Origin: an uncultured Candidatus Saccharibacteria bacterium
Lineage (GTDB): Bacteria > Patescibacteriota > WWE3 > UBA101185 > UBA10185
Assembly: GCA_964643995.1 (NCBI GenBank)
Contig: CAZXUJ010000001.1
Location: 5,622 to 69,621 of the forward strand
Length of the DNA stretch: 64,000 bases
Direction of reading: 5' to 3'
The translations under genes and the position numbers were made by a program. The notes below the pieces were generated by a model. The model was not told the DNA's origin. It did no database searches and saw only the letters and a program-made list of their open reading frames with translations. Numbering within the stretch: the stretch's first letter is position 1; each line of letters opens with the position of its first letter. Shown here in pieces: positions 17,141-39,868 of this stretch.

Positions 17141-18085
17141 CTACCTACTTACAACGTCTTCCGGGAGAGGTACATAGGTTGTACCAATGCTTCCAATACC
17201 CTCAATTGCGATGTAAGCGTTTTCACGTGGAATTGTCATGTAGCGCCCGGAATCACCTTCGCTGACAATTGAAATTCCCTCACGATGAGTCGCTACATCT
17301 AAGCAACTGGCGCCTTCGCCACATCCTGAGGAACCTACATAAAAACTTACCCCTGCGCGCTCAAAACTTGCAAAACCCGATTTGTAGTTCGCGCTTTCAA
17401 GCCAAAGCCAATCACCGGTGTAGGTGATGGTGAAGAAGTACCTCTCTTGGTTTCTTTCTCCCTCACTTGGGAATGTTTCAACCAAAAGCTCTATGATCGA
17501 GAAAACCGGCAATTCAACGAAGAATCTTCTGCCTGATGCAACCACGTAATTGTCAATGGTCGCATCATAGAGCGTTAAGTCAGCATTAGCAGTCAAGGTC
17601 ACATCGAGTAAAAAGGTCCCCTCGTCGAGGCCAAACTCCAAACCAGCGGGCAACCAGTTTTGCCCGATTTTGTTATCCAGATGGGCGTAAACTTCGATTT
17701 CACCCCACCGATAACCCCCATTAGGTAAACCGTTATGCAAGTACTGCTCCCAGCTGACTCTGATAGTTTCCTCGTCTAGGCTGGACAAGCGCAAACCATT
17801 TTGCGTCTCCTCCCACTGTGTGTAAACTTCAACATCACAGGTTTGGTGCTCGTAAGGAACTTGATCCCCATCACCCTTAATTTGAACTACACAGGGTGTG
17901 CTGGTAGGCGTTTCGGTTGGGGTATTGGTTGGCGTGCTTGTCGGCGTTTCGGTAGGGGTATTGGTTGGTGTGCTTGTCGGCGTTTCGGTTGGGGTATTGG
18001 TTGGTGTTTGAACACTCTCAGGACAGCCGCAGGCACTGAAAAACAATACCATAAATACAAAACTAATAACCAATTTCTTAGACAT
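17141..18085 (-). CDS. Lipoprotein/secreted protein with Thr-Pro tandem-repeat linker
   Basis: Signal peptide plus Cys (LFFSACGC); PTNTPTETPTSTP x3 encoded by a 36-bp tandem repeat; globular C-terminal domain unknown. Confidence 0.6.
   Translation of the reverse strand: MSKKLVISFVFMVLFFSACGCPESVQTPTNTPTETPTSTPTNTPTETPTSTPTNTPTETPTSTPCVVQIKGDGDQVPYEHQTCDVEVYTQWEETQNGLRLSSLDEETIRVSWEQYLHNGLPNGGYRWGEIEVYAHLDNKIGQNWLPAGLEFGLDEGTFLLDVTLTANADLTLYDATIDNYVVASGRRFFVELPVFSIIELLVETFPSEGERNQERYFFTITYTGDWLWLESANYKSGFASFERAGVSFYVGSSGCGEGASCLDVATHREGISIVSEGDSGRYMTIPRENAYIAIEGIGSIGTTYVPLPEDVVSR
17895..18010. repeat. 36-bp tandem repeat x ~3.2 (ggtgtgcttgtcggcgtttcggttggggtattggtt), in-frame within CDS 17141-18085
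   Basis: Three near-identical consecutive 36-mers seen directly; encode TPTSTPTNTPTE units on the minus strand. Confidence 0.85.
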
Positions 18086-18581
18086 GTTTTTGTCCTCCGT
18101 ATTGACTGTTGATAAGGATTAGTATTAGCTTCTCCGCCAAGAAGCTAAAGTAACCGCGCTGAATACAAATTATGTATTGTACTCAAAACGGTTACTTCAA
18201 CATAGCGGAACAGCTTAGCTAACAGTAGGTTTTCAATGTTCAGAAACCTTGTTTGCAACAAAATTTCTGACCCCATTTTATACTATAGGTTGTCTGTAGC
18301 TTGAAGTATCTTGAGCCAACCTGACATATTCTGACTAGCGTTTTTTGCTTTAGTTATAAATGAAATTTAAGGTTTATGGAGCACCAGTCGAGTCTGGAAA
18401 CCCACAAGCAAATTATACTCTCCAGGCTAGAAATGAGACAAATAAGACACTATAAAAAAGGGAATGGTTCTATAATTCTCTAGGTTATGCAATTTTGCCG
18501 AGAATCGTTTGGTTAATAGTTTTGTATATAGTATTTAAGCCTCGTCAGTACGTTGTAGCCAGTGATATAATCGCAATTGAA

Positions 18582-22231: not shown

Positions 22232-23057
22232 TAAAATTAATCAAATAATTCTTGGGGATTGCATAACAGGTATGGAAAAACTACCTGATAGGTCAGTTGA
22301 CTTAGTGATTGCTGATCCCCCTTACAATGTATCAAAAGGTAACAAATGGAAGTGGGATAACAGCGTTAAATTACAGGGATTTGGTGGAAATTGGAATAAA
22401 ACCATGGAAGATTGGGACAACATGTCACTTCAAGATTATTGGAGTTTCACTGAAGCTTGGTTAAATCAGGTTTGTAGAGTGTTGAAACCCTCGGGGTCTC
22501 TTTGGGTATATGGAACTTATCACAATATTGGAATAATTAATGTAATTATGCAGAAGCTGGGGGTCGAAATGTTAAATGAAATAATATGGTTTAAACGAAA
22601 TTCATTTCCTAATTTATCGGGCAGACGATTTACTGCCAGTCATGAAAATTTGATTTGGGCCCACGTCGGTGGAAAAAAGCGACAGTACTATTTTGATTAC
22701 AAGAAAATAAAGGAAATGCAATTTCCTGAAGACAAGATAAAAACTCCAGGAAAACAGATGAGAACTGTATGGGACATACCAAATAACAAGGAGGCTTCGG
22801 AATTGAAATTTGGAAAACATCCTACCCAGAAGCCGTTGCGTTTATGTAGAAGAATTTTATTAGCAACAAGCAGGCCATCAGACTTGATATTGGTCCCATT
22901 CTGCGGTTCTGGAAGTGAATGTGTTGCCGCAAAAATGCTTGATAGGAACTTTATAAGCTTCGAAGTAGATCAGAAATATGTTGATATCGCTAATAAGCGT
23001 ATTGAGAATACTGATGTTAAAGCAAATTTATTTAATCTTTCTTTGGATACTCTATGA
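22212..23057 (+). CDS. DNA amino-methyltransferase, beta-class (N4-cytosine or N6-adenine)
   Basis: Motif IV LVIADPPYNV precedes motif I ILVPFCGSGSECVAAK (beta-class order). Confidence 0.8.
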   Translation: MTKSEDIKINQIILGDCITGMEKLPDRSVDLVIADPPYNVSKGNKWKWDNSVKLQGFGGNWNKTMEDWDNMSLQDYWSFTEAWLNQVCRVLKPSGSLWVYGTYHNIGIINVIMQKLGVEMLNEIIWFKRNSFPNLSGRRFTASHENLIWAHVGGKKRQYYFDYKKIKEMQFPEDKIKTPGKQMRTVWDIPNNKEASELKFGKHPTQKPLRLCRRILLATSRPSDLILVPFCGSGSECVAAKMLDRNFISFEVDQKYVDIANKRIENTDVKANLFNLSLDTL

Positions 23058-23911
23058 ATGAAGTCGGTAAAAAATTAATTCCACCTGTTATTAAGTGGAG
23101 CGGTAGCAAGAGACCTGTTGCTTATCAGTTATCACAGTATTTTCCAGAGACTAAAAGGTTCTTTGATCCATTCGTTGGAGGTGGTTCTATATTACCGTTT
23201 TTCTTTGGTAAAAAGGCTTTTGTTGGTGACGTAATTCCAGAGTTAATATTTCTTTGGGAATCGATTAAAACGGATCCAGACAAAGTTATTAATGAATATA
23301 GAACTAGATGGGAATCACTTAAGAATAATGGATACACTGAGTATTACTCCATTCGGGACACATTTAACGTAACAAGAAATCCTATGGATTTCTTGTTTTT
23401 AAGTAGAACCTGCGTGAACGGTTTGATTAGGTATAACAAAATAGGGGAATTTAATAATTCATTACATCATACACGCTCAGGTATAGATCCCGAACGTTTT
23501 GCCCCTATAATTAAAATGTGGAGCAAATGGATTCAACAAGTGTCGTTTCTCAATCAGGATTATCGATTAACATTAAAGGAAGTTACTAAAGGAGACACGG
23601 TATTTTTAGATCCCCCATATGTGGGTACAAAATCCAGATACATACCTCAAAAATTCGACTATGCAATTTTCTTTGATGAACTTGAGAGGCTAAACAGCAC
23701 TGGTGTTAACTGGATTCTCACCTTAGACGGTAATGCAGGGGATAGATATTATGATAGCAAGATTCCAAAAGAATTATATAAGGCCAGTATTAAGGTAAAT
23801 ACAGGAAAGTCACCGTTTTCAAAAGTAATGAATAATAAACAAGACAGTATTAGCGAATCAGTGTACTTCAACTTTCAACCAATTGCCAAAATGCCTAACG
23901 CGGTTTTGTAA
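23054..23911 (+). CDS. Dam-family (D12 class, alpha) N6-adenine DNA methyltransferase
   Basis: N-term IKWSGSKRP...FDPFVGGGS (motif I) then LDPPYVGTKSRY (motif IV); start overlaps previous MTase stop (ATGA). Confidence 0.8.
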   Translation: MNEVGKKLIPPVIKWSGSKRPVAYQLSQYFPETKRFFDPFVGGGSILPFFFGKKAFVGDVIPELIFLWESIKTDPDKVINEYRTRWESLKNNGYTEYYSIRDTFNVTRNPMDFLFLSRTCVNGLIRYNKIGEFNNSLHHTRSGIDPERFAPIIKMWSKWIQQVSFLNQDYRLTLKEVTKGDTVFLDPPYVGTKSRYIPQKFDYAIFFDELERLNSTGVNWILTLDGNAGDRYYDSKIPKELYKASIKVNTGKSPFSKVMNNKQDSISESVYFNFQPIAKMPNAVL

Positions 23912-25855: not shown

Positions 25856-26141
25856 ACAAGTCTATCCAATTTAATTGATATCCCAAAAATTTATCAAGAA
25901 ATATTAATTTCACTTTATAGGATATTGCAATATGGCCTTTTTATCAAGGAACTTAGGAAATTTTAAGCGGGATACTAATCTTGCACACTTTTTCGCTAAA
26001 ATAGAATTAATAAGCTTAAAAACTTATTTAAGAAATCTGAACAAAGGCACTTGTCACTTTAGACTTTAGCCATTGAACACGCCAAATGACCAAAAAGCAT
26101 ATGTAAAGTATGTAGTTATTTTTGTGCCTAAAAGGAGGCTT

Positions 26142-27470
26142 ATGGAAGAAAAATTAAATATAGTTTACGTACAAGTTAATAAATTAAACCCTGCCCCATA
26201 TAACCCCAGAAAGTGGGATGAGGACGCGTGTACAAAGTTAAAAGAAAGCCTAACAAAATTTGGCTTTGTTGACCCGCTGATAGTTAACTCGGCTCCAAAT
26301 AGAGAAAACGTGGTCATCGGAGGACACTTCAGGCTCAAAATGGGTATAGAGCTTGGTTTCAAAGAAGTTCCCGTTGTCTACGTTAATATTCCTGAGCTTG
26401 AAAAAGAAAAGGAATTAAACCTAAGACTTAACAAAAACGTTGGTACTTGGGATTTTAAACTATTGGCAGAGTTTGATGCATCGTTACTTGGTGATATTGG
26501 CTTTTCGAGCGAGGAGTTGGACGATATATTTGGAATCGACGATACACCTGAAGAATTCGACCTTCAAAAAGAACTTCAGAAGCTAAATATTCAAAATATT
26601 AATATCAAAAAAGGCGATGTGTATAAGCTTGGTGATAGTAGGCTAATGTGTGGCGACTCTACCGTCGACACAGATGTTCTAAAGCTATTTGGTGATGAAA
26701 AAGCCGATATGTGCTTTACCGACCCACCCTATATTCTTGATTACTTAAAAGGTAAGAAAAAAGCTGGTAATGCAATTACTGGCTTTGGTGCGAAACGTGA
26801 TCGTAGGTACCTTGAAACCGATGTTTTGCCCGATGATTTTACTGAAAAATGGATGGCAAATATTGCAAAGATCCAAAAGGAAAGCTTTTCAATTATTGTT
26901 TATGAAAATTGGAAAAACATACGAACCATTTGGGGCGAAATGGAAAAGTATTGGAAAGTTAAAAATATGATTGTGTGGCATTTACCAAATCGTACCCAAG
27001 GGTTTGCAGGCAAGTATAGATTCTTTTCCAAGCACGATATTGCAATGGTCGGAGCTTCTCCGAATGCCAATATCGATTATAACTTAGAACCCGAAGAAGA
27101 CGGTCTTCAAAACGAATATGAAACAGCACTTTATGCGATTTCAGGTAAACCTCAATGGGAAAGCTATAAGCATGGTAAAAAGTACCAGCCAACGGACTTT
27201 ATTGAGTATGTTGCCTCGGATGAAAAAAGCTCAGGCCAAGGCATCATATTTGGCACGAAACCACTTGAAATACTAATTCCATACATCAAAGTACTTACAA
27301 AACGCGGAGATCTAATTGTTGAACCTTTCGGTGGAAGTGGTTCAACTCTAATTGCGGCTACAAAAATGAACCGCAGATGTTACTTAATGGAAAAGTCGCC
27401 TGTTTATGCTGAAGTTATTAAAAACCGTTGGGAAAAACTTACGGGTCTTAAAGGGGAGCGATTATTATGA
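26142..27470 (+). CDS. ParB-like nuclease domain fused to beta-class DNA amino-methyltransferase (phage-type)
   Basis: N-term ParB/Srx fold (LNPAPYNPRKW...VIGGHFRL); MTase motif IV FTDPPYILDY then motif I VEPFGGSGSTLIAA. Start set to ATG at 26142, which has AGGAGG 6 nt upstream; ORF extends to 26073. Confidence 0.75.
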   Translation: MEEKLNIVYVQVNKLNPAPYNPRKWDEDACTKLKESLTKFGFVDPLIVNSAPNRENVVIGGHFRLKMGIELGFKEVPVVYVNIPELEKEKELNLRLNKNVGTWDFKLLAEFDASLLGDIGFSSEELDDIFGIDDTPEEFDLQKELQKLNIQNINIKKGDVYKLGDSRLMCGDSTVDTDVLKLFGDEKADMCFTDPPYILDYLKGKKKAGNAITGFGAKRDRRYLETDVLPDDFTEKWMANIAKIQKESFSIIVYENWKNIRTIWGEMEKYWKVKNMIVWHLPNRTQGFAGKYRFFSKHDIAMVGASPNANIDYNLEPEEDGLQNEYETALYAISGKPQWESYKHGKKYQPTDFIEYVASDEKSSGQGIIFGTKPLEILIPYIKVLTKRGDLIVEPFGGSGSTLIAATKMNRRCYLMEKSPVYAEVIKNRWEKLTGLKGERLL

Positions 27471-27886
27471 GTAAAGCAATTGAAGATAGGCAGAAAAAAG
27501 AACGCGCGCTACTTCTTGAAACGTTTAAGAAGACTCCAATTATTCAACTGGCTTGCGAAAAGTCTGGTGTTGGCAGAGCAACATACTATCGATGGCGACA
27601 TGAAGATTCCGAATTTGCACTTCAAGCAGATTTGGCTTTAGAGGAAAGCGTGGGGCTTATGAATGACCTTGCCGAATCTCAGCTTTTATCTGCGATAAAA
27701 GAAAAAAACATTACAGCTATTATATTTTGGCTTAAGAATAGACATAAGGCTTATACAAACAGGGTTGAAATAAATGCAAAAGTAGAATCAAAAAATGCGG
27801 AACTTAGCCCAGAACAAGAAGATCTAATAAAAAAAGCGCTTGGCTTATCAAGCATTGTTGCAAGCGGAGGTACGAAGGATGATTAA
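27467..27886 (+). CDS. Phage terminase small subunit-like HTH protein
   Basis: 139 aa, HTH IQLACEKSGVGRATYYRWRHEDSEF, immediately upstream of and overlapping terL; ATGA overlap with previous gene. Confidence 0.5.
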   Translation: MSKAIEDRQKKERALLLETFKKTPIIQLACEKSGVGRATYYRWRHEDSEFALQADLALEESVGLMNDLAESQLLSAIKEKNITAIIFWLKNRHKAYTNRVEINAKVESKNAELSPEQEDLIKKALGLSSIVASGGTKDD

Positions 27887-29396
27887 CTCCAGTTTATGCA
27901 CGGATGATATTGATAAGATAGTAAAAGACCCTAAGGTCAGAAAAGAACTAACCCGCAAAAGTCATTATTTGTTTTTCCATATTTACTTTGCTAGGTACGT
28001 CAAATATCCAACAGCTGATTTTCAAAAAGAAATATTTGAGCTGACTGAAAAGCCAGACGCGATGCTGTATGAAATCATTGCTTTTAGGGGTTCTGCTAAG
28101 TCTACAATAATGTCGTTATCACTCCCGATTTGGTCACTTATTAATGAGTCACAGAAGAAATATATTTTGCTTTTGAGCCAAACTCAGCAACAGGCTAGGC
28201 AAGCGTTAATCAATATAAAACGAGAGCTTGAAAGTAATGCATTACTTATTAATGACTTTGGACCATTTGATGAGGATAGTGATGAGTGGCGCACTAATTC
28301 ATTAGTTATTCCTAAATTTGATGCTCGAATTTCCGCGGCTTCTACTGGTGAAAGTATTCGAGGTGTAAAGCACGGTGAGTATCGACCTGATTTAATAATC
28401 GCGGACGATGTGGAGGATTTATCATCAGTTAAAACAAAAGAAGGTCGGGATAAAACGTACGATTGGTTTACTGGTGAAATCGTTCCCGCAGGTGATGTAA
28501 ATACTCGAATATTTTTAATTGGTAACCTTCTACATGATGGCTCTTTAATGGTTCAAATTAAAGAACAAATTCTTAGTAAAAAATTACGGGGTATATTCCG
28601 CGAGTACCCATTGGTAAGTGAAGACAAACAAATATTGTGGGCTGGCAAGTTCCCAAACAATGAGGCCATTGAGGCGTTAAAAGCTACAGTACCTAGTGAA
28701 TCAGCCTGGTCACGGGAATATTTGCTTAAAATAATCTACGACGACGATCGAGTCATAAAACCTGAGTGGATTCATAGATACTCCGATTTACCTCAAATAT
28801 CATGGGAAGGTTACCAATATACTGCCGTTGGTGTTGATATTGCAGTTTCTGAAAAAGAGCATGCGGATTATAGTGCAATTGTTGCAGGTATGGTTTTTAA
28901 AAAGAACGGTAATACATCCATTTATATATTGCCCTATCCAGTTAATAAGCATTTAACTTTTCCCGAACTGGAAGAAGCAATCCGTGATTTAGCTAGGTCA
29001 TTACCTACAAAAAGAAAAGTTAAATTATTCATTGAGGACGTTGGGGCTCAAAAAGCATTGGTTCAAAGGCTACAAATGTATGGGTACGATGTAGAAGGCA
29101 TAGTACCTAGGGCTGATAAACGAACTAGACTTGGTTACACGGCACAACCGTTAAAATACAAGACCGTGCAGTTGTGTAAATATGGCTGTGATGAATTAGT
29201 AGACCAGCTAAGCAATTTTGATTATGTAAGGCATGATGATCTTGCTGATGCCTTTTCACTGCTTGTAAATAAGGTTTTAGACGACGCTACAATAAAAAAG
29301 ATACAACCAAATATCCGTGTTCTATCTTCCACTAATAGTTTTAGAACGGTAGGTGGTGGAAGTGCCAACGACGTTGCAAGTTTCTTAAGAAGCTGA
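27879..29396 (+). CDS. Phage terminase large subunit (ATPase + RNase H-like nuclease)
   Basis: Walker A FRGSAKST, Walker B DLIIADDVED, C-terminal nuclease motif GVDIAVSEKEHADYSAIV. Start set at ATG 27879, preceded by GGAGGT. Confidence 0.75.
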   Translation: MINSSLCTDDIDKIVKDPKVRKELTRKSHYLFFHIYFARYVKYPTADFQKEIFELTEKPDAMLYEIIAFRGSAKSTIMSLSLPIWSLINESQKKYILLLSQTQQQARQALINIKRELESNALLINDFGPFDEDSDEWRTNSLVIPKFDARISAASTGESIRGVKHGEYRPDLIIADDVEDLSSVKTKEGRDKTYDWFTGEIVPAGDVNTRIFLIGNLLHDGSLMVQIKEQILSKKLRGIFREYPLVSEDKQILWAGKFPNNEAIEALKATVPSESAWSREYLLKIIYDDDRVIKPEWIHRYSDLPQISWEGYQYTAVGVDIAVSEKEHADYSAIVAGMVFKKNGNTSIYILPYPVNKHLTFPELEEAIRDLARSLPTKRKVKLFIEDVGAQKALVQRLQMYGYDVEGIVPRADKRTRLGYTAQPLKYKTVQLCKYGCDELVDQLSNFDYVRHDDLADAFSLLVNKVLDDATIKKIQPNIRVLSSTNSFRTVGGGSANDVASFLRS

Positions 29397-29657: not shown

Positions 29658-30557
29658 ATGGATCAAGCTAAACAGGTTGAAACTGCTACGCCACAGTATA
29701 AAAACCTAGTTAAAAACTTATGGCGTAAAAGCTGGCTTCTAAAGCTTGTACTTATTGCACTTTATCCGCTATCTCTTACTTATTTAATTTGGAAATCTCA
29801 TAGACTGCCGAAAGTTGTAAAAGGCATACTTCTTTTAGTAATGTGGTTTTTTGTTATTGTATTTACTGCTGCTTTTTCAAGTCCAACAAGTCAGCAAGCA
29901 TATCAAGAAGGTCAAAAAGCAGGGCAAGAAGCCATTCAGAAGAAAGAAACTACTGAAAAGACAGCCACAACACAAGTTGCTGAGAACAACCAGCTAGTTC
30001 AAATACCTACTGAGCAACCTCAACCGACCGCAGCAGCAACACCGACTCCTACACCCACACCCACGCCAACAGCGCAGGTAGCCGAAAAGCCCGCGGAGCA
30101 AAAACCATATAACATTTACGACGATTTATGGAAAGCTCTGGATACTAGCTTAAAGACTCGAAAAAACATTGATATTAAATATGACGCGACTACAAAGATG
30201 GCAACGCTTTTGGTAAACGAAAACGAAACTTATTGGGATGAAACCGCTATGTTAAACAGTGCATATGCAAGACTCGTTAAATATGGCAAATCTGCCTTTG
30301 AAATAAACGGAGTAGATCAGGTAGGTGTAAACATAAGCACGAAAATGATGGATTCACATGGTAAAGAAAGCGTAGAGGAAGTAATCAGAGTAGCAATTAC
30401 CAAAACAAGCTACAAAGACTATAACTGGGATAACATGCAATACGTCGACGATTTCTACAACAAGATGGTGGATGCGGTAAGCGTTAATTACATAAATCCT
30501 GGGATTTTTAGAAAGCTGAATCTAGATAAGGTTCACCTTAACTTACTTTTGAATTGA
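29658..30557 (+). CDS. Membrane-anchored protein with Pro/Thr/Ala-rich linker (PTPTPTPTPT), unknown
   Basis: Start at ATG 29658, preceded by AGGAGG; two TM helices; low-complexity linker; C-terminal globular domain. Confidence 0.5.
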   Translation: MDQAKQVETATPQYKNLVKNLWRKSWLLKLVLIALYPLSLTYLIWKSHRLPKVVKGILLLVMWFFVIVFTAAFSSPTSQQAYQEGQKAGQEAIQKKETTEKTATTQVAENNQLVQIPTEQPQPTAAATPTPTPTPTPTAQVAEKPAEQKPYNIYDDLWKALDTSLKTRKNIDIKYDATTKMATLLVNENETYWDETAMLNSAYARLVKYGKSAFEINGVDQVGVNISTKMMDSHGKESVEEVIRVAITKTSYKDYNWDNMQYVDDFYNKMVDAVSVNYINPGIFRKLNLDKVHLNLLLN

Positions 30558-30607
30558 GAGAACTGGTGCGTAAGTATATACTTACGCACTATCTTAAGAT
30601 ATTTTAA

Positions 30608-30931
30608 TCAGCAACAAATCTTAAGTAGATTAATGTATCTTGTTAAACCGTCGGATTTCTTTCCGTAAGTTCGGAATAACTGCATCACGTTTTTTAGTAT
30701 TTCCTGTAAGTATTTCTTTTCCTCATTAGTAATATCGGAATTATTGAAAAGTTTAGTTCTTAGCGATATTAATTGCTCATTGCTATCTTGTTTCATACTC
30801 AAGATATGGTCTAGGTATGTCGCTACGTCAGTATTCGTAACAGTATCTTTTAAAAATAACATATCTATCTGATCTAGTTGTGTGTTCATATGCCTATTAT
30901 AACGTAAGTCAGCTATATGTGTTGTAACCAC
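30608..30931 (-). CDS. Hypothetical small protein (107 aa)
   Basis: ORF only. Confidence 0.3.
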   Translation of the reverse strand: MVTTHIADLRYNRHMNTQLDQIDMLFLKDTVTNTDVATYLDHILSMKQDSNEQLISLRTKLFNNSDITNEEKKYLQEILKNVMQLFRTYGKKSDGLTRYINLLKICC

Positions 30932-30978
30932 GCCACTCTTACTCTAACAAGATTCTTACCTTTTGGTATAATACCTCT

Positions 30979-32322
30979 ATGCGTATTGCGTTAATAACAG
31001 CCAGAATCGATCCTTTTATATCACCAATTGATATGGATGGTGGCTGTGTTATGGTGCGTAACTATATAAAATCCCTATATGATTTTGGACATGATATTCA
31101 TGTTTTTACTAGACTTGTAGAAGAATCTCCCATTAATAGTGAGCAGTTAAACACTAAAGCACGTATGCAAAAACAAGCAGGTGTTGGTAAGGTCAAAGTA
31201 AACTCCCGACTTACTGTTTATCGATTACCCTATACGTCCTTAAACTCAGAGGAGAAAGTATGGGAAAAACAACTTCAGGAGTCTTCATCGTTTCTAAGCA
31301 ATGTGAAGGTTTATCTTGATGCACAAAGTTTCGATGTATACCACTATTTTCATTTGCTATCTATAGCTGGATGGTACTTGCTTGATTCTGAAATTCCATT
31401 TATTGAAAAGACAACTTTTAGTCCTTTATTCTTGAGCATTGGACGGCAATTTGAATACCTGCCCGATGCGAGAATTGATATGGAAAGAAAAATCTTGGAA
31501 AGAGTACCTGCTGTAAGTGGCCAATCAAATGGTGAACTTAAAACTATACGTAAATCATACGGAATAGAAGATGAGAAGTTAGTAAAGGTACCTTTGGGGG
31601 TTGATACGAGTATTTTTTACCCTAAAGAGGAATTCGATTCTGTAACAACTAATAAAAAGGTAATTTTGATAAGTCCAAATTCAATAAAACCTCAAAAAAG
31701 ACAGTTGGAAGTTGTAAACATTGCAGGTGAACTCAGAAATCGTGGACATAATGTTTTAACAATAGTAATGGGCAGAATAAAAGATCCTGACTATTACGCA
31801 CAAATTCAAAAACGTATTGAGGAACTTAATCTAAGTCAGGCTTCTAGGGAGGATATTCCAACAAGATCAGAGTTATTAGCACTAAACTCGGATATATTAT
31901 TTTTACCGGGTAAAAAAGAAAAGGAGCTTTCTGACTTATTACGAACAGCTGATATAGCCGTTTTTCCCTCCACAGATGAAGGTTTTGGTTTGTTAAATCT
32001 AGATTGTATGGCATGTGGTACTTTAACTGTGTGCTCTAATCTAAAAGAATATGGTGACTATCTTATTCCAGGAGAAAATGCCATTGCAGTTGATGTTGAA
32101 AGAGGAATAAATGGTTTCATAGAGGAACTGGATGGTTTACTTAAAAATAAAGAAAAGATCGTGAAAATGTCAAAAATTGCAGTGAACAGTTCTCAGAATT
32201 TCTCGTGGGATAAACTTATAAAAAAACAACTGTTTGTTTATAACACCTTGTTTAATAATGAACCTGTTAATTACACAAAATTTCATACTTCAAATTGGGT
32301 AAATTTGAATGAGCAGGATTAG
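30979..32322 (+). CDS. GT4-family (GT-B fold) glycosyltransferase
   Basis: C-terminal GT4 signature region FPSTDEGFGLLNLDCMACGTLTV (ExFG...E motif). Confidence 0.68.
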   Translation: MRIALITARIDPFISPIDMDGGCVMVRNYIKSLYDFGHDIHVFTRLVEESPINSEQLNTKARMQKQAGVGKVKVNSRLTVYRLPYTSLNSEEKVWEKQLQESSSFLSNVKVYLDAQSFDVYHYFHLLSIAGWYLLDSEIPFIEKTTFSPLFLSIGRQFEYLPDARIDMERKILERVPAVSGQSNGELKTIRKSYGIEDEKLVKVPLGVDTSIFYPKEEFDSVTTNKKVILISPNSIKPQKRQLEVVNIAGELRNRGHNVLTIVMGRIKDPDYYAQIQKRIEELNLSQASREDIPTRSELLALNSDILFLPGKKEKELSDLLRTADIAVFPSTDEGFGLLNLDCMACGTLTVCSNLKEYGDYLIPGENAIAVDVERGINGFIEELDGLLKNKEKIVKMSKIAVNSSQNFSWDKLIKKQLFVYNTLFNNEPVNYTKFHTSNWVNLNEQD

Positions 32323-32327
32323 TTACT

Positions 32328-33194
32328 ATGAGAAAAGTAGTCAAAACAGACGCTGAACTAATTTTTGACACTGACAAGGTGTATAAACGGTTTACCACGT
32401 CCTCTGTAGATACAAACGTATTAAACGATCTAATTAGACTAGATAAACAGGCAAATCCAATTCCACATTTTTTGGGAATTTTACCTTATTTGGATACACC
32501 TTTTTGTAGTGAGGCTCTACCCGATGATACTCAAATATTAGTAATGGCTTATTTGCCTGAGCAGTACTTTCTAACAAAAATTACTGAAAGGGGTGAGTTG
32601 ACAGATACGATCTTGCAAAAAATGGCGCACGCCCTCTATAGCTTTCACTCAAAAATGACCATTGTTTCAGAATCTTTTGGAGGAAATTATCTTCTAAATA
32701 GATTTACAAAAGATAGGGAGTTAGTTGCAGACAAAGTAATATTGAATGCTGATGTAGCTTCATATCACAAAGGATTTACGAAAACACTTGATAGTAGCGT
32801 AGAAATTATCCAAAAAAGGTATCAAAATAACCGCTTAGTCGAAGGACATGGGGACTTGAATTTGGATCATATACATCTACAAAAAGACACTCTTACGTTT
32901 ATAGACTTTTCACACAATACAAAATATAGATTTGATGACGTTTCCCGAGATATCGCGGGCATTTATCTACATTTTATAGAACTTGGAAAAAAAGATTTTG
33001 CAACTGCTTTTCTGAGTGAGTATCGTAAGCTTAGTAACGACGCCGATCTTAATTTAATGGTAAATCTTCAAGTTGCTAAAAAGGTGTTAGTTAAGTATTT
33101 CATATACATAGGTGGATTTGATCCCAAACACTACGATGAAAAGATGCTTCAATCTGTTATTAACACTATAATCGACTTAGGAAACGTATACTAA
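32328..33194 (+). CDS. APH/choline-kinase-fold small-molecule kinase (candidate sugar or antibiotic kinase), paralog A
   Basis: Catalytic loop HGDLNLDHIHL and metal-binding FIDFSHN (HGDxxxxN...D motifs of the APH/ePK-like fold). Confidence 0.55.
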   Translation: MRKVVKTDAELIFDTDKVYKRFTTSSVDTNVLNDLIRLDKQANPIPHFLGILPYLDTPFCSEALPDDTQILVMAYLPEQYFLTKITERGELTDTILQKMAHALYSFHSKMTIVSESFGGNYLLNRFTKDRELVADKVILNADVASYHKGFTKTLDSSVEIIQKRYQNNRLVEGHGDLNLDHIHLQKDTLTFIDFSHNTKYRFDDVSRDIAGIYLHFIELGKKDFATAFLSEYRKLSNDADLNLMVNLQVAKKVLVKYFIYIGGFDPKHYDEKMLQSVINTIIDLGNVY

Positions 33195-33197
33195 ACT

Positions 33198-34253
33198 ATG
33201 CATATTTTAGAAATATCATCTTTACAGGAATTAACACCCCCAGAGGGTTATGGAGGTACAGAAAGATTTGTTCACTGGCTTTCAGAAGCTTTTGTAGAAA
33301 ATGGTAACCAGGTTAGTGTAATCTGCAAACAGGGATCCAAAGGTGGTACCTACCAAACAGTTTTCACAGAACAAGAGCAACTGACAGAAACTGTTAGGAA
33401 CTTTATTAAAAACAATGAGGTACAAATTATTCATGTAAATACTAAAGATAAATTCTTACTAAATTATTTAAAAACAACAAAGATTAAAGTAGTTATAACC
33501 CTTCACAATAATTTTAGGCGAACAAGTAGTTGGGTGGATTTAATAAAAGAAAACAATCCAAATTTTTACGTCACAACTATTAGTGAAAACTTAAAAAAGC
33601 GAGTTTTAGAAGCCCTTGAATTTAATTCTGTAACAATACCCACAAATGGAATTACTAATCTTGGCTTTGGTATGCCTATTACGAAAATAGTTAATAACGA
33701 AGATCCACAGTATTATTTATACCTAGGAGTGATGGCTAGATATAAAGGAGTTTTGGATATAGTAAAAGCTTTTTCTAATACAACCAAACAATTACTATTA
33801 GTTGGACCCTGTAACGACCCAAAGGAGAATGAGTATTTCAAGGAAATATTAGAATATACAAAACGTTATACAAATATTAAGTATTACGATGCTACAAAAG
33901 ATAATTCCGAAAAAGTGAATCTTATTAAAAGGGCAAAAGCTTTGATAGTGGCTACTGGATACGATCCTCTAGAAAGTGATTGCCACGAAGCTTTTGGACT
34001 TGTAATGCTTGAGGCAAATAATTTGGGTGTGCCCGTTATTGGTTTCGCAAAAGGGAATATAGAGGATTACATAGTAAACGGTGTTAACGGATATAAGTTT
34101 CAAGATATCAACCAGTTGCCTGAATTAGCCGATAAAGTTGAACAGAGTGACCTTAGTGAAAAGTGCATTGCTACTGCTGAAAAATATGATATCAATAAAA
34201 TCGCTACACAATATCTAAATTTCTTTACAAATATTCTTCAACAAAAGTATTAA
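33198..34253 (+). CDS. GT4-family glycosyltransferase
   Basis: EAFGLVMLEANNLGVPVIG (GT4 E-x7-E region). Confidence 0.68.
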   Translation: MHILEISSLQELTPPEGYGGTERFVHWLSEAFVENGNQVSVICKQGSKGGTYQTVFTEQEQLTETVRNFIKNNEVQIIHVNTKDKFLLNYLKTTKIKVVITLHNNFRRTSSWVDLIKENNPNFYVTTISENLKKRVLEALEFNSVTIPTNGITNLGFGMPITKIVNNEDPQYYLYLGVMARYKGVLDIVKAFSNTTKQLLLVGPCNDPKENEYFKEILEYTKRYTNIKYYDATKDNSEKVNLIKRAKALIVATGYDPLESDCHEAFGLVMLEANNLGVPVIGFAKGNIEDYIVNGVNGYKFQDINQLPELADKVEQSDLSEKCIATAEKYDINKIATQYLNFFTNILQQKY

Positions 34254-35079
34254 GCATACTCACGCTATTAGTTAATTTATCCTTATCGTAATGTACAACA
34301 TTGTACCCACCAGAATAGACAAAATATTTCATTAATACTCGTTTAGCTACTTGTAGTATTATAAGTTTTCTAATTAATTCATCAGACGTATATGCGAATA
34401 GTAATAAGTTGGAAAGCTTTTTAGAACCGCGCTGATACAAATCGAGGAAAAGAGTAGCGATATCCCTAGTCGGATCATCAGTTCGATATTTTTTTCTTAA
34501 GTAAAAGTCTATTAAACAAAAATTATCCCCTTCTTTAAAAAGATGTTCTAAGTTTACATCACCATGTATTTGTTTTATGTAACCCTTATTTGCTCTCTCA
34601 AGTATAAAGTCTCGAAGACTATTAAGTTCTTTGTCTATCTTTTCTAATATAGAGACTATGTTCTCATGCATATGAGGTAAGGTTCTAATACGAACGATAT
34701 CCTCCTTCATACGACTGTATAAATAGTCATTAGGTTGCTTATTATCAGTTGGGCATTTTGAATGAAAATTGTTTAGATACATACCTAATGGTTTTATTAT
34801 CTGTTCTAAATCATTTGTCTGTATAAGACAATCATCCTCATTTAATTTTCTCATAACCATAACGGGAGTGTTTGTGATATTAGGCCAAAAACCCTCAAAT
34901 TCTTTTGAAGTTTGCATTCTTAAAATAATAGGCTTTATGTTTGCTAAAGAGTCTAATAGGGGAATGTCAGTAAGGTCATCTTTCGTTACTTTGCCGTCTA
35001 AAATAAGCTTATAAACCTTATCTTTAGTAAAGACAATATCGACATCATCTTTGGTAATTCTTTTTAAAATTTCCTGCAT
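34225..35079 (-). CDS. APH-fold kinase, paralog B (inverted orientation relative to paralog A)
   Basis: IHGDVNLEHLF and LIDFY motifs; N- and C-termini alignable with 32328-33194 (DKVYK..., VAKRVLMKYFVYSGG vs VAKKVLVKYFIYIGG). Confidence 0.55.
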   Translation of the reverse strand: MQEILKRITKDDVDIVFTKDKVYKLILDGKVTKDDLTDIPLLDSLANIKPIILRMQTSKEFEGFWPNITNTPVMVMRKLNEDDCLIQTNDLEQIIKPLGMYLNNFHSKCPTDNKQPNDYLYSRMKEDIVRIRTLPHMHENIVSILEKIDKELNSLRDFILERANKGYIKQIHGDVNLEHLFKEGDNFCLIDFYLRKKYRTDDPTRDIATLFLDLYQRGSKKLSNLLLFAYTSDELIRKLIILQVAKRVLMKYFVYSGGYNVVHYDKDKLTNSVSMLNTFVEEYL

Positions 35080-36479
35080 TATCTAGGGTAATATGTACTA
35101 AAAATACGTTTCTTATCAAACTGTAAAACACTATTTCTGTTTTGTTCTTCATTAAATTGTTTTGGTAATTCTGTATAGTTAATTGAATTATTCTTATTAC
35201 AGTAGGAAAGATGTCCTCCTCTTTCAAACTGAGTAATCACTGTACAACCACAAGCTAGTGCTTCAAGTGGTGCTAACCCAAAAGGTTCTGTCCATTCGGG
35301 TTTTTCTAATCCAGCAAGGAAAATAAAGTATTTGTAGTCGTTTAGCACCTTAACTTTTTCTTGATCCCCTATTTCTCCCATTAATCTAGCCTTAGGATAG
35401 TTTTTCACTGCTGTCAGAAACGTATCTCCATACTCTTTTTCATTCTCACTAAAAATTATTGGACCGTAAAAATCTATTCCTAGATTGTATTTCTTTGCAT
35501 ATTCCAAGCAGGCTAGTGGGGATTTATGTTGTCCGATAGCTCCTATATACACGATATCTTTATCTCTATTGGTTTTATTTAGTGAGTATAAAGAAAAATC
35601 TATGCAGTTAGGTTTTATTTCATACCCAATACCTAAATTATTGAAATATTGTGTCTGCTGATCCCCTGATAACACAAAACATTCGCATCTTTTCAAATCC
35701 TTCAAATAAGCTAACTTTTCAGAGTAGTTGTTTTCAAGTATTACAAATACACGTCTCCCACATTTATCGAGTCTTTGGATTAAATCTTTCCCATAAGTAT
35801 ATGTGATGATCAGTCTGTAGTTTCCTAAATCAACATCCGCTAAATCTTCCAGACTAAAAGTGTGGTAATCAGAACCAACTTTTGATGCTATATCAACTTC
35901 ATAACCTAAATCCTTATAGTACTCGTACGCTAGTGCAGCCATACGTTCTCTACCACCATATAACTTAGGTGGTACACATATCGAATCGGGGGCTATTATC
36001 AAAACCTTCTTACTTAATGATTTTATATTTGTATCAAAAAAAGCAGGTATTTCTTTGTTTTCAAAATACTTTAATAGAGCGTTTTTGGATTCTACAGGTG
36101 TGATATTCAGATCTTTTAATTGGCTTATATCCACCCACATTGGAAAATATTGCTCATTTTCATTCATGTGTTCCTTTTCGGGGCCACCAAGCTCTAATTC
36201 GCCAGAGATATAGTTACATGAAAATACAAAATTTAAACGGGATTCCGTATCCAAATAGTAAATTAAGCGGTCTACAACAGCTTCTACATTAAATTCTTCT
36301 TTTATTTCACGCTTACAGGTTTCTTCTAGTGTTTCGCCATCTTCCCAATGTCCACCGGGAAGGGTATAGAAGACTTCTCCTTTAAGCACTTGCTTCATAA
36401 GAAGAAGTCTTCCATTGTCTATTACAACACCCGTTGACCTGAAACCGCGAGGTCTGTTTTTTAGAATAACTTTTTTCAT
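35079..36479 (-). CDS. Fusion: N-terminal Nudix hydrolase + C-terminal GT4 glycosyltransferase
   Basis: Nudix box GGHWEDGETLEETCKREIKEEFNVE; GT4 region EPFGLAPLEALACGCTVIT. Confidence 0.65.
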   Translation of the reverse strand: MKKVILKNRPRGFRSTGVVIDNGRLLLMKQVLKGEVFYTLPGGHWEDGETLEETCKREIKEEFNVEAVVDRLIYYLDTESRLNFVFSCNYISGELELGGPEKEHMNENEQYFPMWVDISQLKDLNITPVESKNALLKYFENKEIPAFFDTNIKSLSKKVLIIAPDSICVPPKLYGGRERMAALAYEYYKDLGYEVDIASKVGSDYHTFSLEDLADVDLGNYRLIITYTYGKDLIQRLDKCGRRVFVILENNYSEKLAYLKDLKRCECFVLSGDQQTQYFNNLGIGYEIKPNCIDFSLYSLNKTNRDKDIVYIGAIGQHKSPLACLEYAKKYNLGIDFYGPIIFSENEKEYGDTFLTAVKNYPKARLMGEIGDQEKVKVLNDYKYFIFLAGLEKPEWTEPFGLAPLEALACGCTVITQFERGGHLSYCNKNNSINYTELPKQFNEEQNRNSVLQFDKKRIFSTYYPR

Positions 36480-36480
36480 A

Positions 36481-37176
36481 CTAAATCATCCGTTGAGCAA
36501 ACAGTAAACCGTGACTTTCCAGCTCAGCTATGCTCTCAGGACTATGTACAAGGTTATCACGTACAGTGCCTTTTTTAAAGGGAATGTAGGTTTTAGCTGC
36601 AAATCTAAATACCCTTTTCAGATACGCAACTTGGCGCATTAAAATCTCCTCACTGACTTTGTGATTCCTTACAGTGAGCACTGTATATAACCCTGAGTTA
36701 TTCCTGCGAACTCCCTCGAGGAATGAAACTTGGTCAGGTGCCGTTTTTCTTGGTTCATCAAAGAAACCTACGAAGTCGGGATACACGACTTCAAAGAATA
36801 CTTGATCGTCGTGTGCTACCTTGGCTACAGCTTTTTGATGCTGAGTTACTCCGTAGCTTTGAAGGTATGCGATGAATACACCACCAAGAATAGTGCATCC
36901 ATATTTCCACGCCATCCCTTCCGCATCTCGTAACGGTACTGTTCCGTAGCGAACAGGTGGGCAATGTACAGGATATTTGGAATCAACAGAGTTGGTTCCT
37001 GTAACAGTGCCAGGTATGAAATTGTTCAAGAAAACCAGCATTTCAGAGATCGTGCTCTTGCTGGGCTCAAACATACCATCCCTGATGCGATAAATGCTTA
37101 AACCGCAACGCTCTGCAGCGTAGGGCTTAAGCACAACAAATGGTGCCTTTCCGCTTGCCAGCGTTTTTCGGTTCAT
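36481..37176 (-). CDS. Hypothetical protein with noticeably higher GC and different codon usage than neighbours
   Basis: 231-aa ORF. GC-ending codons are frequent (estimated by eye as mid-40s % GC against a mid-30s background). No family recognised. Confidence 0.4.
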   Translation of the reverse strand: MNRKTLASGKAPFVVLKPYAAERCGLSIYRIRDGMFEPSKSTISEMLVFLNNFIPGTVTGTNSVDSKYPVHCPPVRYGTVPLRDAEGMAWKYGCTILGGVFIAYLQSYGVTQHQKAVAKVAHDDQVFFEVVYPDFVGFFDEPRKTAPDQVSFLEGVRRNNSGLYTVLTVRNHKVSEEILMRQVAYLKRVFRFAAKTYIPFKKGTVRDNLVHSPESIAELESHGLLFAQRMI

Positions 37177-37259
37177 CTTTCTCTCCTTAGCTTAGATTTG
37201 GCGTCATTATAGCATTTATGTGGATATAAGGTATGATTTTGACTTTATAACTTGGATGC

Positions 37260-37279
37260 GTCATCAATGTGTTGATGAC
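37260..37279. promoter_or_regulatory. Perfect 8-4-8 palindrome GTCATCAA-TGTG-TTGATGAC overlapping the serine recombinase start codon
   Basis: Seen directly; position suggests an operator or recombinase-binding site. Confidence 0.4.
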
Positions 37280-38579
37280 AGAACAAGAAAATAAAAATCT
37301 AAAGTATTGTCTCTATGCTAGAAAATCTACTGAAAGTGATGAACGACAAGCAATGTCAATAGATTCCCAAATCAAAGAAATGATGGAACAGGCTAACAAA
37401 GAAGGTCTGAATATTGTTGAAATTCGCCAAGAAAGCCATTCCGCTAAACTTTCAGGGGCTAGGCCAGTGTTTAAACAATTGATCTATGACATAGATAAAG
37501 GATTATTCAATGCAATTCTTACTTGGGCACCAGACAGACTAAGTAGAAACGCAGGAGATTTGGGGGCTTTAGTTGATTTAATGGATCGTAAACAACTTTT
37601 GCACATCAAAACCTATTCCCAGACATTTTCCAACAATCCAAACGAAAAGTTTCTTCTTATGATTCTTTGTTCTCAGGCTAAGCTTGAAAATGATCACAGA
37701 GGTGAAAATGTTAAACGGGGTATTAGAGCAAAATGTGAACGAGGTTGGAGACCCTGCATGTCTCCACTTGGTTATCATAATAGAACGATAAATGGAGTTA
37801 ACGATCTTGTATTAGATGAGGTTAAAGCTCCCATCTTACGGGAAATGTTTGAATTGGTTGCATACTGTGGGTTTAGCGGGCGCTCTGTTAAAAGATATTT
37901 AGATAAGGAAAAGAACTTTCTATCAAGACGGGGCAAAAAGTTAGCGCTTGGGAGACTTTACGAAATTCTTAAAAATCCATTTTACTGTGGGGATTTTGAA
38001 TATCCTGTTGGAAGTGGAAACTGGTACAAAGGAAAACACGAACCCCTAATAACCAGAGAACTATTCAACAAAGTACAAGAAAAGCTGGCCACTTCTGATA
38101 AACCAAATTCAGAAAAACATGACTTTCCGTTCACACGAACAATAAGATGTTCAACCTGCGGATCGCACCTTACGGGAGAGGAAAGAACAAAGCAATTAAA
38201 GAATGGAAACAGAGTTAAGTATGTTTATTATCACTGTCTGCGTGGCAAGGACAAAGACTTTGACTGCAAGGAACCCTATATCCGTGAGGATGACCTGGTA
38301 ACACAATTAGTTGAAATTATTAACGAGGTGGAAATCGATAAGGATGCTTTTACTAAACTTTTACAGGAGGAATATACAAGGTTTGCAAAATTTAAAGCTA
38401 TTTTAAACGAAGATTCTCAAAATAATGAAGAAAAGCAAAGGCTAAAAGAAATTGATATTAAAACTTTTGCAAAACACATTTTAAGATTCGGATCTAATCA
38501 GGAAAGAAGGGAAATCTTTACATTAATTAAGCAACCACTTTATCTTAAGAACATGAAACTGTATGTACACATTAACTAG
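37269..38579 (+). CDS. Large serine recombinase (resolvase/invertase catalytic domain + recombinase domain + zinc ribbon)
   Basis: YARKSTESDERQAMSIDSQ (catalytic Ser region), RLSRN, Cys cluster CSTCGSH...YYHC. Annotated start is GTG; alternative ATG at 37275. Confidence 0.8.
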   Translation: MLMTEQENKNLKYCLYARKSTESDERQAMSIDSQIKEMMEQANKEGLNIVEIRQESHSAKLSGARPVFKQLIYDIDKGLFNAILTWAPDRLSRNAGDLGALVDLMDRKQLLHIKTYSQTFSNNPNEKFLLMILCSQAKLENDHRGENVKRGIRAKCERGWRPCMSPLGYHNRTINGVNDLVLDEVKAPILREMFELVAYCGFSGRSVKRYLDKEKNFLSRRGKKLALGRLYEILKNPFYCGDFEYPVGSGNWYKGKHEPLITRELFNKVQEKLATSDKPNSEKHDFPFTRTIRCSTCGSHLTGEERTKQLKNGNRVKYVYYHCLRGKDKDFDCKEPYIREDDLVTQLVEIINEVEIDKDAFTKLLQEEYTRFAKFKAILNEDSQNNEEKQRLKEIDIKTFAKHILRFGSNQERREIFTLIKQPLYLKNMKLYVHIN

Positions 38580-39513
38580 TTTTTAACTCTTTTAATAGGA
38601 ATTTTACCCAATCATGATACCAGTACCAATTTTTACCTACATAATTTCCGTAACCTTTTACAGGATCTTTAGCGTTATGTTTTCTCCATAAGTCCGTATG
38701 TGTACTAATCGATATGTTTATTCCTTTTATTTTAAGTTCGTTTATAACCTCTCTAGCTAAAAATAACTTTTCTTTTTTTTCTTTTATAACCACATATTCT
38801 TTACTAATGTTTTTAGCTAACGGTGAGTTAGGGTCAATAAATTCGATAACTCTATCTGCTTGACCCGATCTGTTCGCTGATACCTTTGTAAATAACAGTC
38901 TATATGCGAATCTCTCGTTTTTTAATTCTTCTGACTCCAGTTTGTCGTCAAATGCAGCTACATATGTTCTTATATTCTTGGATATCAATTTATCTTTGTT
39001 TTTGATTACTTGCATTTGGTCAAAATCTAATTCCGCGAATTGTAGGCTCAGCGCAAGATTATTATCCAGACCCTTTTTATCTCCATGAAGAAGCTTAAGA
39101 TAGAAGTTGTAGTTTAACGCGCATGCCTGATATCGTGCGGACATATAAGAATCAAGACCTTGCGCTTTTCTATGTTCAATCTGATTTCGTAATCCTATCA
39201 AAAACTGTAAATTATTTTTTGTATTTTTGTCCAATGGGCTCGCTGTATTGGAAACGCACTCCTGTAGATCCCAGTATTTTATACTTCCATCAGGATTCTT
39301 AATGTACCTTTTTCTATTTCCTTTTCCAGTATGGTATCTATATTCAATAGCGTGTTCTTTGTAGTAAGCGTGAAGTAAATAAGTCCATGCAATCATAGCT
39401 AAAACAATGAATGATTCAGACTTAAACATTATTAATGGGTTATTATATATCTGCACTGCAGATAACATAGCTTCCCGTGATTTATCAATTAGGTCAATTT
39501 TTTCTGCACGCAT
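38572..39513 (-). CDS. Hypothetical protein (313 aa), convergent with serine recombinase
   Basis: ORF only; its 3' end overlaps the recombinase 3' end by 8 bp. Confidence 0.4.
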   Translation of the reverse strand: MRAEKIDLIDKSREAMLSAVQIYNNPLIMFKSESFIVLAMIAWTYLLHAYYKEHAIEYRYHTGKGNRKRYIKNPDGSIKYWDLQECVSNTASPLDKNTKNNLQFLIGLRNQIEHRKAQGLDSYMSARYQACALNYNFYLKLLHGDKKGLDNNLALSLQFAELDFDQMQVIKNKDKLISKNIRTYVAAFDDKLESEELKNERFAYRLLFTKVSANRSGQADRVIEFIDPNSPLAKNISKEYVVIKEKKEKLFLAREVINELKIKGINISISTHTDLWRKHNAKDPVKGYGNYVGKNWYWYHDWVKFLLKELKTS

Positions 39514-39733: not shown

Positions 39734-39808
39734 TGGAGCGAGGAACGGGGTTCGAACCCGCGACCTCTTCCTTGGGAAGGAAGCATTCTACCACTGAACT
39801 ATCCTCGC
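39734..39808 (-). tRNA. tRNA-Gly (anticodon CCC)
   Basis: Reverse complement GCGAGGATAGTTCAGTGGTAGAATGCTTCCTTCCCAAGGAAGAGGTCGCGGGTTCGAACCCCGTTCCTCGCTCCA; loop TTCCCAA; differs from tRNA-Gly(GCC) at a handful of positions. Confidence 0.85.
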
Positions 39809-39868
39809 AACAAAGTGAAGAGGAGTAGCGATGTACTCATCGCGTCATCCTCGCAACAAAGTGAAATC
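39809..39868 (-). promoter_or_regulatory. Conserved structured leader of tRNA-Gly(CCC) (hairpin GCGATG-TACT-CATCGC) with flanking ~20-nt direct repeat
   Basis: Homolog of 14991-15047. Direct repeat (c/t)atcctcgcaacaaagtgaa at 39802-39821 and 39849-39868. Confidence 0.45.

Follow-up and report, generated by a model that had tools for sequence, protein, structure and literature searches.

A horizontally mobile glycosyltransferase cassette of Patescibacteria with its own predicted nucleotide-handling proteins, tentatively read as a cytoplasmic glycosylation pathway

In this work, a gene cassette was analyzed that spans positions 30608-37176 of a 64,000-nucleotide (nt) stretch of DNA (contig CAZXUJ010000001.1, hereafter the window) from an uncultured Candidatus Saccharibacteria bacterium. 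The cassette is a kind of glycosyltransferase gene cluster, horizontally mobile and self-contained in Patescibacteria, which brings together three glycosyltransferases (GTs), a Nudix domain, a protein with the predicted fold of a nucleoside diphosphate kinase (NDK), a small helical protein and, as optional members, APH-fold kinases. We tentatively favor the hypothesis that it encodes a cytoplasmic three-step glycosylation pathway of the Leloir type, with nucleotide-handling enzymes of its own and an optional sugar kinase. The evidence for this reading includes the conservation of the cassette, purifying selection on all of its genes (dN/dS 0.05-0.23), intact catalytic motifs, the solubility of the proteins, none of which has a transmembrane segment, and the lack of recurrent genes for export or priming.

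An earlier note on this DNA had described five open reading frames (ORFs) between 30979 and 36479, and all five were recovered at the same coordinates. The genes are real, but the boundaries were too narrow on both flanks, and the NDK-like gene and a small gene at the other end had been missed. The cassette contains the following features (amino acids, aa).

30608-30889 (-), small helical protein, ~93 aa if counted from the conserved Met; as a mechanical ORF it extends to 30931
30979-32322 (+), GT4a, GT4 glycosyltransferase of 447 aa, Pfam Glyco_transf_4 and Glycos_transf_1
32328-33194 (+), kinA, APH/ELK-fold kinase of 288 aa, assigned by AlphaFold2 model, Foldseek and motifs
33198-34253 (+), GT4b, GT4 glycosyltransferase of 351 aa, Pfam Glyco_transf_4 and Glycos_transf_1
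34225-35079 (-), kinB, second APH-fold kinase, assigned by paralogy to kinA
35079-36479 (-), Nudix-GT fusion of 466 aa, Pfam NUDIX and Glycos_transf_1
36030-36479 (-), Nudix domain of the fusion, residues ~1-150, MutT-type
35079-36029 (-), GTc, the GT part of the fusion, residues ~155-466, GT-B
36481-37176 (-), NDK-like protein of 231 aa, predicted NDK fold

These genes form two tight convergent operons, GT4a-kinA-GT4b and NDK-like/Nudix-GTc(-kinB), and the small gene is divergent from GT4a. The NDK-like gene comes first in the minus-strand operon and is separated by 1 nt from the downstream Nudix-GT gene. The last place is taken by kinB, whose start shares 1 nt with the stop of Nudix-GT (translational coupling). 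Scans of the cassette proteins with PADLOC and PHROG returned only a generic Nudix match (PDC-S07) and generic GT PHROGs, and the Pfam matches to 'GT4-conflict' and 'TCAD9' are local and below threshold. The isoelectric points vary too much among orthologs to be informative as a hint of nucleic acid binding.

The cassette is rare, with 26 clusters for Nudix-GT/GTc, 9 for the kinA family and 6 for the NDK-like family among 5.8 billion protein clusters. Related loci are given here as L numbers and single homologs as P numbers; the named carriers belong to Candidatus Saccharibacteria (L011, at 98% identity to the window), to WWE3 and to 'Patescibacteria group'. The six-gene order small gene (-), GT4a (+), kinase (+), GT4b (+), Nudix-GT (-), NDK-like (-) is maintained in L001, L006, L008, L010, L011, L012/L044, L013, L035, L037, and L041. 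Such conservation of order and orientation in more than 10 independent loci, despite kinase identities of 22-30%, goes beyond chance. Identity to the window proteins is 53-88% for Nudix-GT, 39-84% for GT4a, 40-71% for GT4b, 30-76% for the NDK-like protein and 22-68% for the kinase, which is the fastest-evolving component. Over ~20 related loci, the constant core consists of the three GTs, the Nudix domain and the NDK-like protein, while the APH-fold kinase is optional. By clustering all ORFs of 15 loci against each other, the GT/Nudix families were found in 15/15, the NDK-like protein in 14/15, the kinase in 11/15 and the small protein in 7/15; no other family recurred in these loci, and no flippase, priming GT, polymerase or transporter was among them. 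The kinases, which the earlier note had placed at the center of the cluster, turned out to be its least conserved and dispensable part, absent from the four variants L039, L040, L043, and L045.

Two of these kinase-less variants, L039 and L040, have a free Nudix gene, an extra GT4b paralog, the NDK-like gene and GTc, with GT4b and GT4a convergent; an SDR gene adjoins the cassette in both, and L039 has a GT2 in addition. L043 is co-linear with the window, and L045 is arranged differently again. In L005 the kinase is present, Nudix and GT are split and the NDK-like gene is absent. The flanks of the cassette vary from locus to locus, often with a tRNA gene at the NDK-like end. Upstream of the cassette, the WWE3 locus L001 (185-6813) carries two paralogs of QueC and several free Nudix genes, along with a Ham1-like NTPase, an AAA_18 kinase and a Ppx-GppA protein; this nucleotide-metabolism neighborhood does not recur in the other carriers. 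The contigs of L035, L037, L038, and L042 are about as long as the cassette itself, yet they lack terminal overlaps, and a circular mini-element was rejected. The carriers are cellular genomes, with contigs of up to 840 kb. Three scans of 2.9 million IMG/VR viral contigs, with the Nudix-GT protein, the Nudix-GT family alignment and the NDK-like alignment, found no relatives, and the idea of the earlier note that the module could be phage-derived was rejected on this ground. Searches of the literature on Nudix and GT proteins in Patescibacteria/Saccharibacteria or in phage hypermodification brought up no description of this cassette.

The earlier claim of three GT4-type enzymes, one of them fused to a Nudix domain, was borne out by Pfam and by an intact Nudix box. 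Two Rossmann-like domains and a C-terminal E-x7-E motif, the marks of the GT-B fold and of GT4 membership, were found. GT4a, with E=4.9e-21 for Glycos_transf_1, carries an E-x7-D variant of the donor-binding motif, EGFGLLNLD. Its best matches among PDB sequences are MshA (3c4q/3c48; E~5e-14, nearly full length), 7qsg, sucrose-phosphate synthase (SPS)-like proteins and GlgM (6tvp), and it falls in the MshA/SPS/GlgM-like branch of GT4. GT4b and GTc belong to a different branch. GT4b is glucosylsucrose-synthase/TreT-like, with the E-x7-E motif EAFGLVMLE, and its nearest PDB entries are 7fg9/8x3q (E=1.4e-14 over the full length), followed by TreT and AviGT4. The entry 7fg9 is the cyanobacterial glucosylsucrose synthase TeGSS, which adds to sucrose from UDP-glucose (PMC9909042). 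GTc passes Pfam with Glycos_transf_1 alone (fusion residues 300-429) and aligns to GT4b across both Rossmann domains (24% identity, 297 aa, E=7e-8); it is a two-domain GT-B paralog of GT4b. It is the best-conserved protein of the cassette, and E398 and E406 of its motif, EPFGLAPLE, are invariant in 16 orthologs.

Judged by sequence, the closest solved relatives of GT4a and GT4b are all cytoplasmic small-molecule or oligosaccharide enzymes with soluble, often phosphorylated acceptors. The pathways of MshA (mycothiol), SPS/TeGSS, TreT, and GlgM are likewise soluble and stepwise, and several use phosphorylated acceptors. However, the similarity of the cassette GTs to these enzymes is at the family level, with NCBIfam equivalog scores far under the cut-offs. 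None of these pathways joins three GTs to a Nudix and an NDK-like protein, and the cassette has no phosphatase, Cys ligase or GlgE.

The Nudix domain was recognized by Pfam at residues 14-125 (E=1.9e-12, 47.8 bits against a cut-off of 21.1). Its Nudix box is complete, G43-x5-E49-x7-R57-E58-I-K-E61-E62-F-N-V, with Asn in place of the last consensus Gly, and G43, E49, R57, E58, E61, and E62 are invariant across 16 orthologs. The catalytic glutamates, whose loss the earlier note had named as an argument against its reading, are present. Among solved structures, the domain is closest to (d)NTP pyrophosphatases of the MutT type (3id9, 2pqv, MutT 5x1x, NUDT15, MTH1, and NudB). In most variants the domain is fused to the GT, and it is encoded by a separate gene in L005, L039, and L040. 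GDP-mannose mannosyl hydrolase WcaH/Gmm is a Nudix enzyme of the colanic acid cluster that is presumed to tune the supply of nucleotide sugar. It resembles the cassette enzyme in being co-encoded with glycosyltransferases; in contrast to it, the cassette Nudix domain is mostly GT-fused, has a full canonical box and is closer to MutT-type NTPases. The window also encodes, at 6804-7910 (-), a 368-aa fusion of PIG-L (GlcNAc-PI de-N-acetylase family) with Nudix, and its Nudix domain is paralogous to that of the Nudix-GT protein (32% identity over 129 aa, E=2e-20). The fusion of one Nudix subfamily to a GT and to PIG-L in a single genome ties this subfamily to sugar chemistry.

The 231-aa product of the first gene of the minus-strand operon has no Pfam match even at E<=10 for the 8 members searched, no NCBIfam, PHROG or PADLOC family, and no hit by hmmsearch against PDB sequences. 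Its predicted fold is the alpha/beta fold of NDK, with an insert of ~80 residues after strand 1; the best AlphaFold model reached a pLDDT of 87 from a shallow alignment of six sequences. The predicted order of secondary structure elements is compatible with the NDK topology. In an alignment of 16 sequences, L16, P18, Y132, P133, K187, R188, R191, N208, H211, and P213 are invariant, and position 17 is K/R. In the predicted topology, the segment (R/K)-(D/C)-N-(L/V/A)-(V/I)-H-(S/T/V)-P-E falls at the place of R-N-x-x-H-G-S-D of NDK, and V-L-K-P at that of I-K-P. On the basis of the model, we infer with fair confidence that the protein has the NDK fold and that His211 is a candidate catalytic residue. 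It differs from NDK proper (Ndk/NME, PF00334) in that sequence homology is not detectable, and also in the insertion, in a shortened Kpn-loop region and in H-S-P instead of H-G-S. The small protein at the other end of the cassette is helical, with a conserved C-terminal motif FRTYGKKSxGLxxYI, and has homologs at the same position in L001, L006, L010, L011, L012, L044, and L040; no Pfam, PHROG or PADLOC match rose above noise.

The kinases kinA and kinB are paralogs (29% identity, E=9e-35). This identity, together with an AlphaFold model of kinA (pLDDT 93) that was built from the family alignment, upheld the earlier statement that the two are paralogous and of the APH fold, and the motifs quoted for them then are present in the sequences. 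Conserved are the VYK lysine, the catalytic loop HGD(L/V)NL(D/E)H (HGDLNLDH in kinA) and the metal-binding Asp of IDF. At the position of the catalytic-loop Asn, kinA/kinB-type members have His, but P0018, P0019, and P0021, which are distant members, have Asn. A Foldseek search of the PDB with the kinA model gave 151 matches at E<=0.001, and the best 50 of the 151 are all APH-type/ELK small-molecule kinases, with glucosamine kinase 6hwj, maltokinase 4u94/4o7o, and APH(2'') at the top (TM-score ~0.5-0.65, identity 11-18%). When the family profile was compared with PDB sequences, maltokinase came first, although weakly (E=0.023), and Mph was found at E=0.09. Matches below threshold were seen to RIO1, APH_3p, LxmK, and maltokinase, the last at 15 bits against a cut-off of 375 (TIGR02457). 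PF01636 did not match the window kinases at E<=0.01, and precomputed PF01636 annotation occurs solely in the orthologs P0002 and P0005. The APH/ELK fold and the HGD...IDF...RD(I/V)AG core are common to the cassette kinases, maltokinase Mak/Pep2, and actinobacterial glucosamine kinase (TM-score ~0.6, identity 14-17%). Unlike Mak, with ~440-450 aa, the cassette kinases have ~288 aa and lack the N-terminal cap domain, and neither TreS nor GlgE accompanies them.

The opposite orientation of kinA and kinB had been taken in the earlier note for an inverted duplication, with a DNA dot-plot as the suggested check. The comparison was negative, the best blastn alignment being 42 nt long, at the HGD motif, with E=0.026, and kinB is about equidistant (27-35%) from every kinA ortholog. 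A recent inverted duplication was rejected on these grounds, and the paralogs are old. Only the closest relatives have an ortholog of kinB, namely P0016 (92%) and L011 (90%), in which the reading frame is disrupted close to the 3' end; L006, whose kinA is 69% identical, keeps just a 112-aa N-terminal remnant (P0023). In the window kinB is intact (dN/dS 0.21 against L011). It is a lineage-specific second kinase, which is under loss in relatives. A profile search of 1.84 billion representatives gave ~12 members of the kinase family and then a sharp drop to an outgroup (E~1e-18) of ~520-aa fusions of an APH-like domain with a P-loop AAA_33 domain from Thermodesulfobacteriota/Desulfobacterales (L014-L034), a large family whose loci lack the context of the cassette. 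Elsewhere in the window, at 11674-12111 (-) beside a tRNA-Phe gene, a 145-aa ORF has a sub-threshold APH match (HNNINPRNILID...LIDWD); it is unrelated to kinA and kinB and is probably a truncated kinase remnant.

We hypothesize that the cassette enzymes act in sequence in the cytoplasm, and we infer their order, their substrates and the part played by the nucleotide enzymes. GT4a, which is closest to MshA, SPS, and GlgM, enzymes that glycosylate phosphorylated small acceptors, would begin by forming a glycoside on an acceptor that is soluble and probably phosphorylated. GT4b and its paralog GTc would then lengthen the product to a short oligosaccharide. The APH-fold kinase, whose closest relatives are maltokinase and glucosamine kinase, may phosphorylate a free sugar or the glycoside, and would in this way provide the phospho-acceptor or else trap the product. 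In variants without the kinase, central metabolism would furnish the acceptor. The NDK-like protein would act via a phospho-His211 intermediate and, together with the Nudix domain, would process the nucleoside diphosphate (NDP) that the three transfers set free or would regulate the pool of NDP-sugars and NTPs. In an organism that has to scavenge nucleotides, this would recycle them and also lift product inhibition. Patescibacteria have a minimal metabolism and scavenge nucleotides and sugars.

Several observations weigh against this hypothesis. A similarity of E~1e-14 within GT4 leaves both donor and acceptor unfixed. The Nudix domain is closer to (d)NTP pyrophosphatases than to ADP-ribose/NDP-sugar hydrolases, so that, with a MutT-type Nudix domain beside an NDK-like enzyme, a nucleotide-directed role fits equally well. 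As for the NDK-like protein itself, the other four AlphaFold models have a pLDDT of 50-76; NDKs fill nearly all of the top 50 Foldseek matches of the model, but with E-values of just 0.013-0.07, and hhalign against one and against five approximate NDK sequences gave a probability of <1%. In addition, a lipid, protein or cell-wall acceptor may be served by genes elsewhere in the genome.

The last point leads to the alternative to which we give the most weight, although we consider it unlikely, namely that the cassette attaches a short glycan to a wall polymer, to a membrane lipid or to a protein such as pilin, an S-layer protein or the co-encoded small protein, with the kinase adding a phosphate decoration and with the genes for export and attachment elsewhere. 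GT4 enzymes commonly produce glycolipids and glycoproteins. APH-fold kinases decorate glycans: WaaP and KdkA phosphorylate lipopolysaccharide, and the CotS kinase pairs with the GT4 enzyme CotSA in spore coats. The copy number and GT content vary among the variants (the extra GT4b and GT2 of L039, the SDR) in the way of strain-variable surface glycans, the cassette is island-borne and tRNA-adjacent, and the window encodes a PMT_2-type GT-C enzyme. However, the priming polyprenyl-phosphate GT, flippase, polymerase, ligase, and transporter expected of a Wzx/Wzy- or ABC-dependent surface polysaccharide cluster are not found in the cassette or recurrently beside it in the 15 loci, and its proteins do not span the membrane. 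The solved relatives are GT4 enzymes of soluble acceptors and not WaaG, PimA, GtfA, or TarM, and the constant pair of Nudix and NDK-like proteins would be left unexplained. Far less credible than any other reading is that the kinases are an aminoglycoside/macrolide resistance pair with the GTs as unrelated neighbors. Their fold matches do include APH(2''), APH(3'), Cph, and Mph, and APH_3p appears below threshold; however, the NCBIfam APH_3p score is 19.3 bits against a cut-off of 205, there is no resistance match at the equivalog level, and the identities to APH enzymes (11-18%) are no higher than those to sugar kinases. The confident alignment to antibiotic phosphotransferases that the earlier note had proposed to look for was not obtained. 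Moreover, the kinase is held in strict synteny between two GTs over phyla-level divergence, and its family is extremely rare and confined to the cassette. Resistance genes were rejected on the score, the low identities and the synteny.

A further alternative is that glycosylation is directed at a nucleotide or nucleic acid, the three GTs glycosylating in turn a modified base of DNA or RNA or a free nucleotide. The Nudix domain would then eliminate the canonical (d)NTP that competes, or else trim the product; the triphosphate would come from the NDK-like protein and sugar-1-phosphate for donor synthesis from the kinase, following the logic of phage DNA hypermodification. We regard this as improbable, and as less probable than an envelope glycoconjugate. 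The clusters for tri-arabinosylated 5-hydroxycytosine of phages RB69/DLP3 use the same toolkit: three GT-B enzymes, with MshA, BshA, SPS, PimA, BGluT, and 7fg9 as best structural matches, an APH-like kinase domain matching 3ham/6hwl, nucleotide kinases, and a dCTPase as NTP pyrophosphatase (PMC13326640). The kinship of the Nudix domain to (d)NTP pyrophosphatases, the NDK-fold partner in the core and the position of the window copy in an island with terminase and DNA methylases are also in favor. On the other hand, the matches to MshA and SPS are generic for any GT4, and in contrast to the RB69/DLP3 module the cassette has no ThyA-like hydroxylase or other base modifier of this kind, dNMP kinase, sugar isomerase, or nucleotidyltransferase; in the 15 loci no ThyA-like base modifier, dNMP kinase, sugar nucleotidyltransferase or polymerase was found in the cassette or recurrently near it. 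The carriers are cellular Patescibacteria, and neither the Nudix-GT nor the NDK-like protein has a relative in IMG/VR. A nucleotide-centered system of a kind so far undescribed in cellular organisms, in which the orphan NDK-fold branch and the MutT-type Nudix-GT make or edit a glycosylated nucleotide or glycosylate DNA or RNA in these ultra-small Patescibacteria, is also improbable, and we place it below the phage-like scheme. If DNA or RNA were glycosylated, the cells could, e.g., mark themselves in this way or use it for attack or protection in conflict between epibiont, host and phage. Glycosylation of nucleotides or nucleic acids in a cellular lineage would be the most exciting outcome, but it is not the most probable one, and the cytoplasmic pathway with a soluble product stays the favored hypothesis.

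Two tRNA-Gly genes, 91% identical and with the anticodons GCC and CCC, enclose the 24.8-kb segment in which the window copy lies. Both continue into a similar tail of 42 nt, giving a direct repeat of ~130 nt at 14916-15045 and 39734-39861, and these repeats are possible island boundaries. The other features of the island and the window are as follows.

18495-20402 (+), 22212-23911 (+), 26073-27470 (+) and 38572-39513 (-), island defense and epigenetic genes
27467-29396 (+), terminase-like genes, small (HTH_Tnp_1_2) and large (weak Terminase_6C)
2538-3788 (-), ManC-like protein with NTP_transferase and GMP beta-helix
41316-42713 (-), phosphomannomutase/phosphoglucomutase

The defense and epigenetic genes encode an OLD-family AAA_15+TOPRIM nuclease, adjacent N6_N4 and Dam-like (D12) methyltransferases, a ParB-N-fused methyltransferase, and a DUF3644 protein that matches the PADLOC candidate PDC-S19 (E=5e-124). 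With the terminase-like pair, these three DNA methylases, the OLD-type nuclease, PDC-S19, and a large serine recombinase, which the island also carries, the earlier description of an island with phage and defense genes holds. No capsid, portal or tail genes were recognized in the island, and a terminase-like pair without structural genes suggests a degraded prophage or a satellite-like element. The sister locus L011 shares 30128-38564 at 96% identity, and there the PDC-S19 gene is replaced by a different sequence. The presence in the window of phosphomannomutase and of a ManC-like GDP-mannose pyrophosphorylase means that the donor supply need not be encoded by the cassette; the two proteins give this small genome a path to GDP-mannose, which is a possible donor for the cassette GTs. 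A tandem repeat with a period of 12 nt (GGTGTGCTGGTA-like, 7+ copies) lies at 17895-18007, within a 314-aa ORF (17141-18085) and in the kilobase of the window with the highest GC content (0.47).

The cassette defines two unannotated families, one of APH-fold kinases that are specific to it and one of NDK-fold proteins in which the N-x-x-H motif is invariant. Its unusual features are the sequence-orphan NDK-fold partner and a Nudix subfamily that has repeatedly been fused to carbohydrate enzymes. Should the NDK-like protein prove active, it would widen the sequence space known for the NDK fold. If the favored hypothesis is true, the product would be small and soluble, and heterologous expression could be used directly as a test. 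The coupling of three GTs to nucleotide-handling enzymes points to a specialized glycoside or glycoconjugate, which is perhaps relevant to the epibiotic lifestyle of these bacteria.

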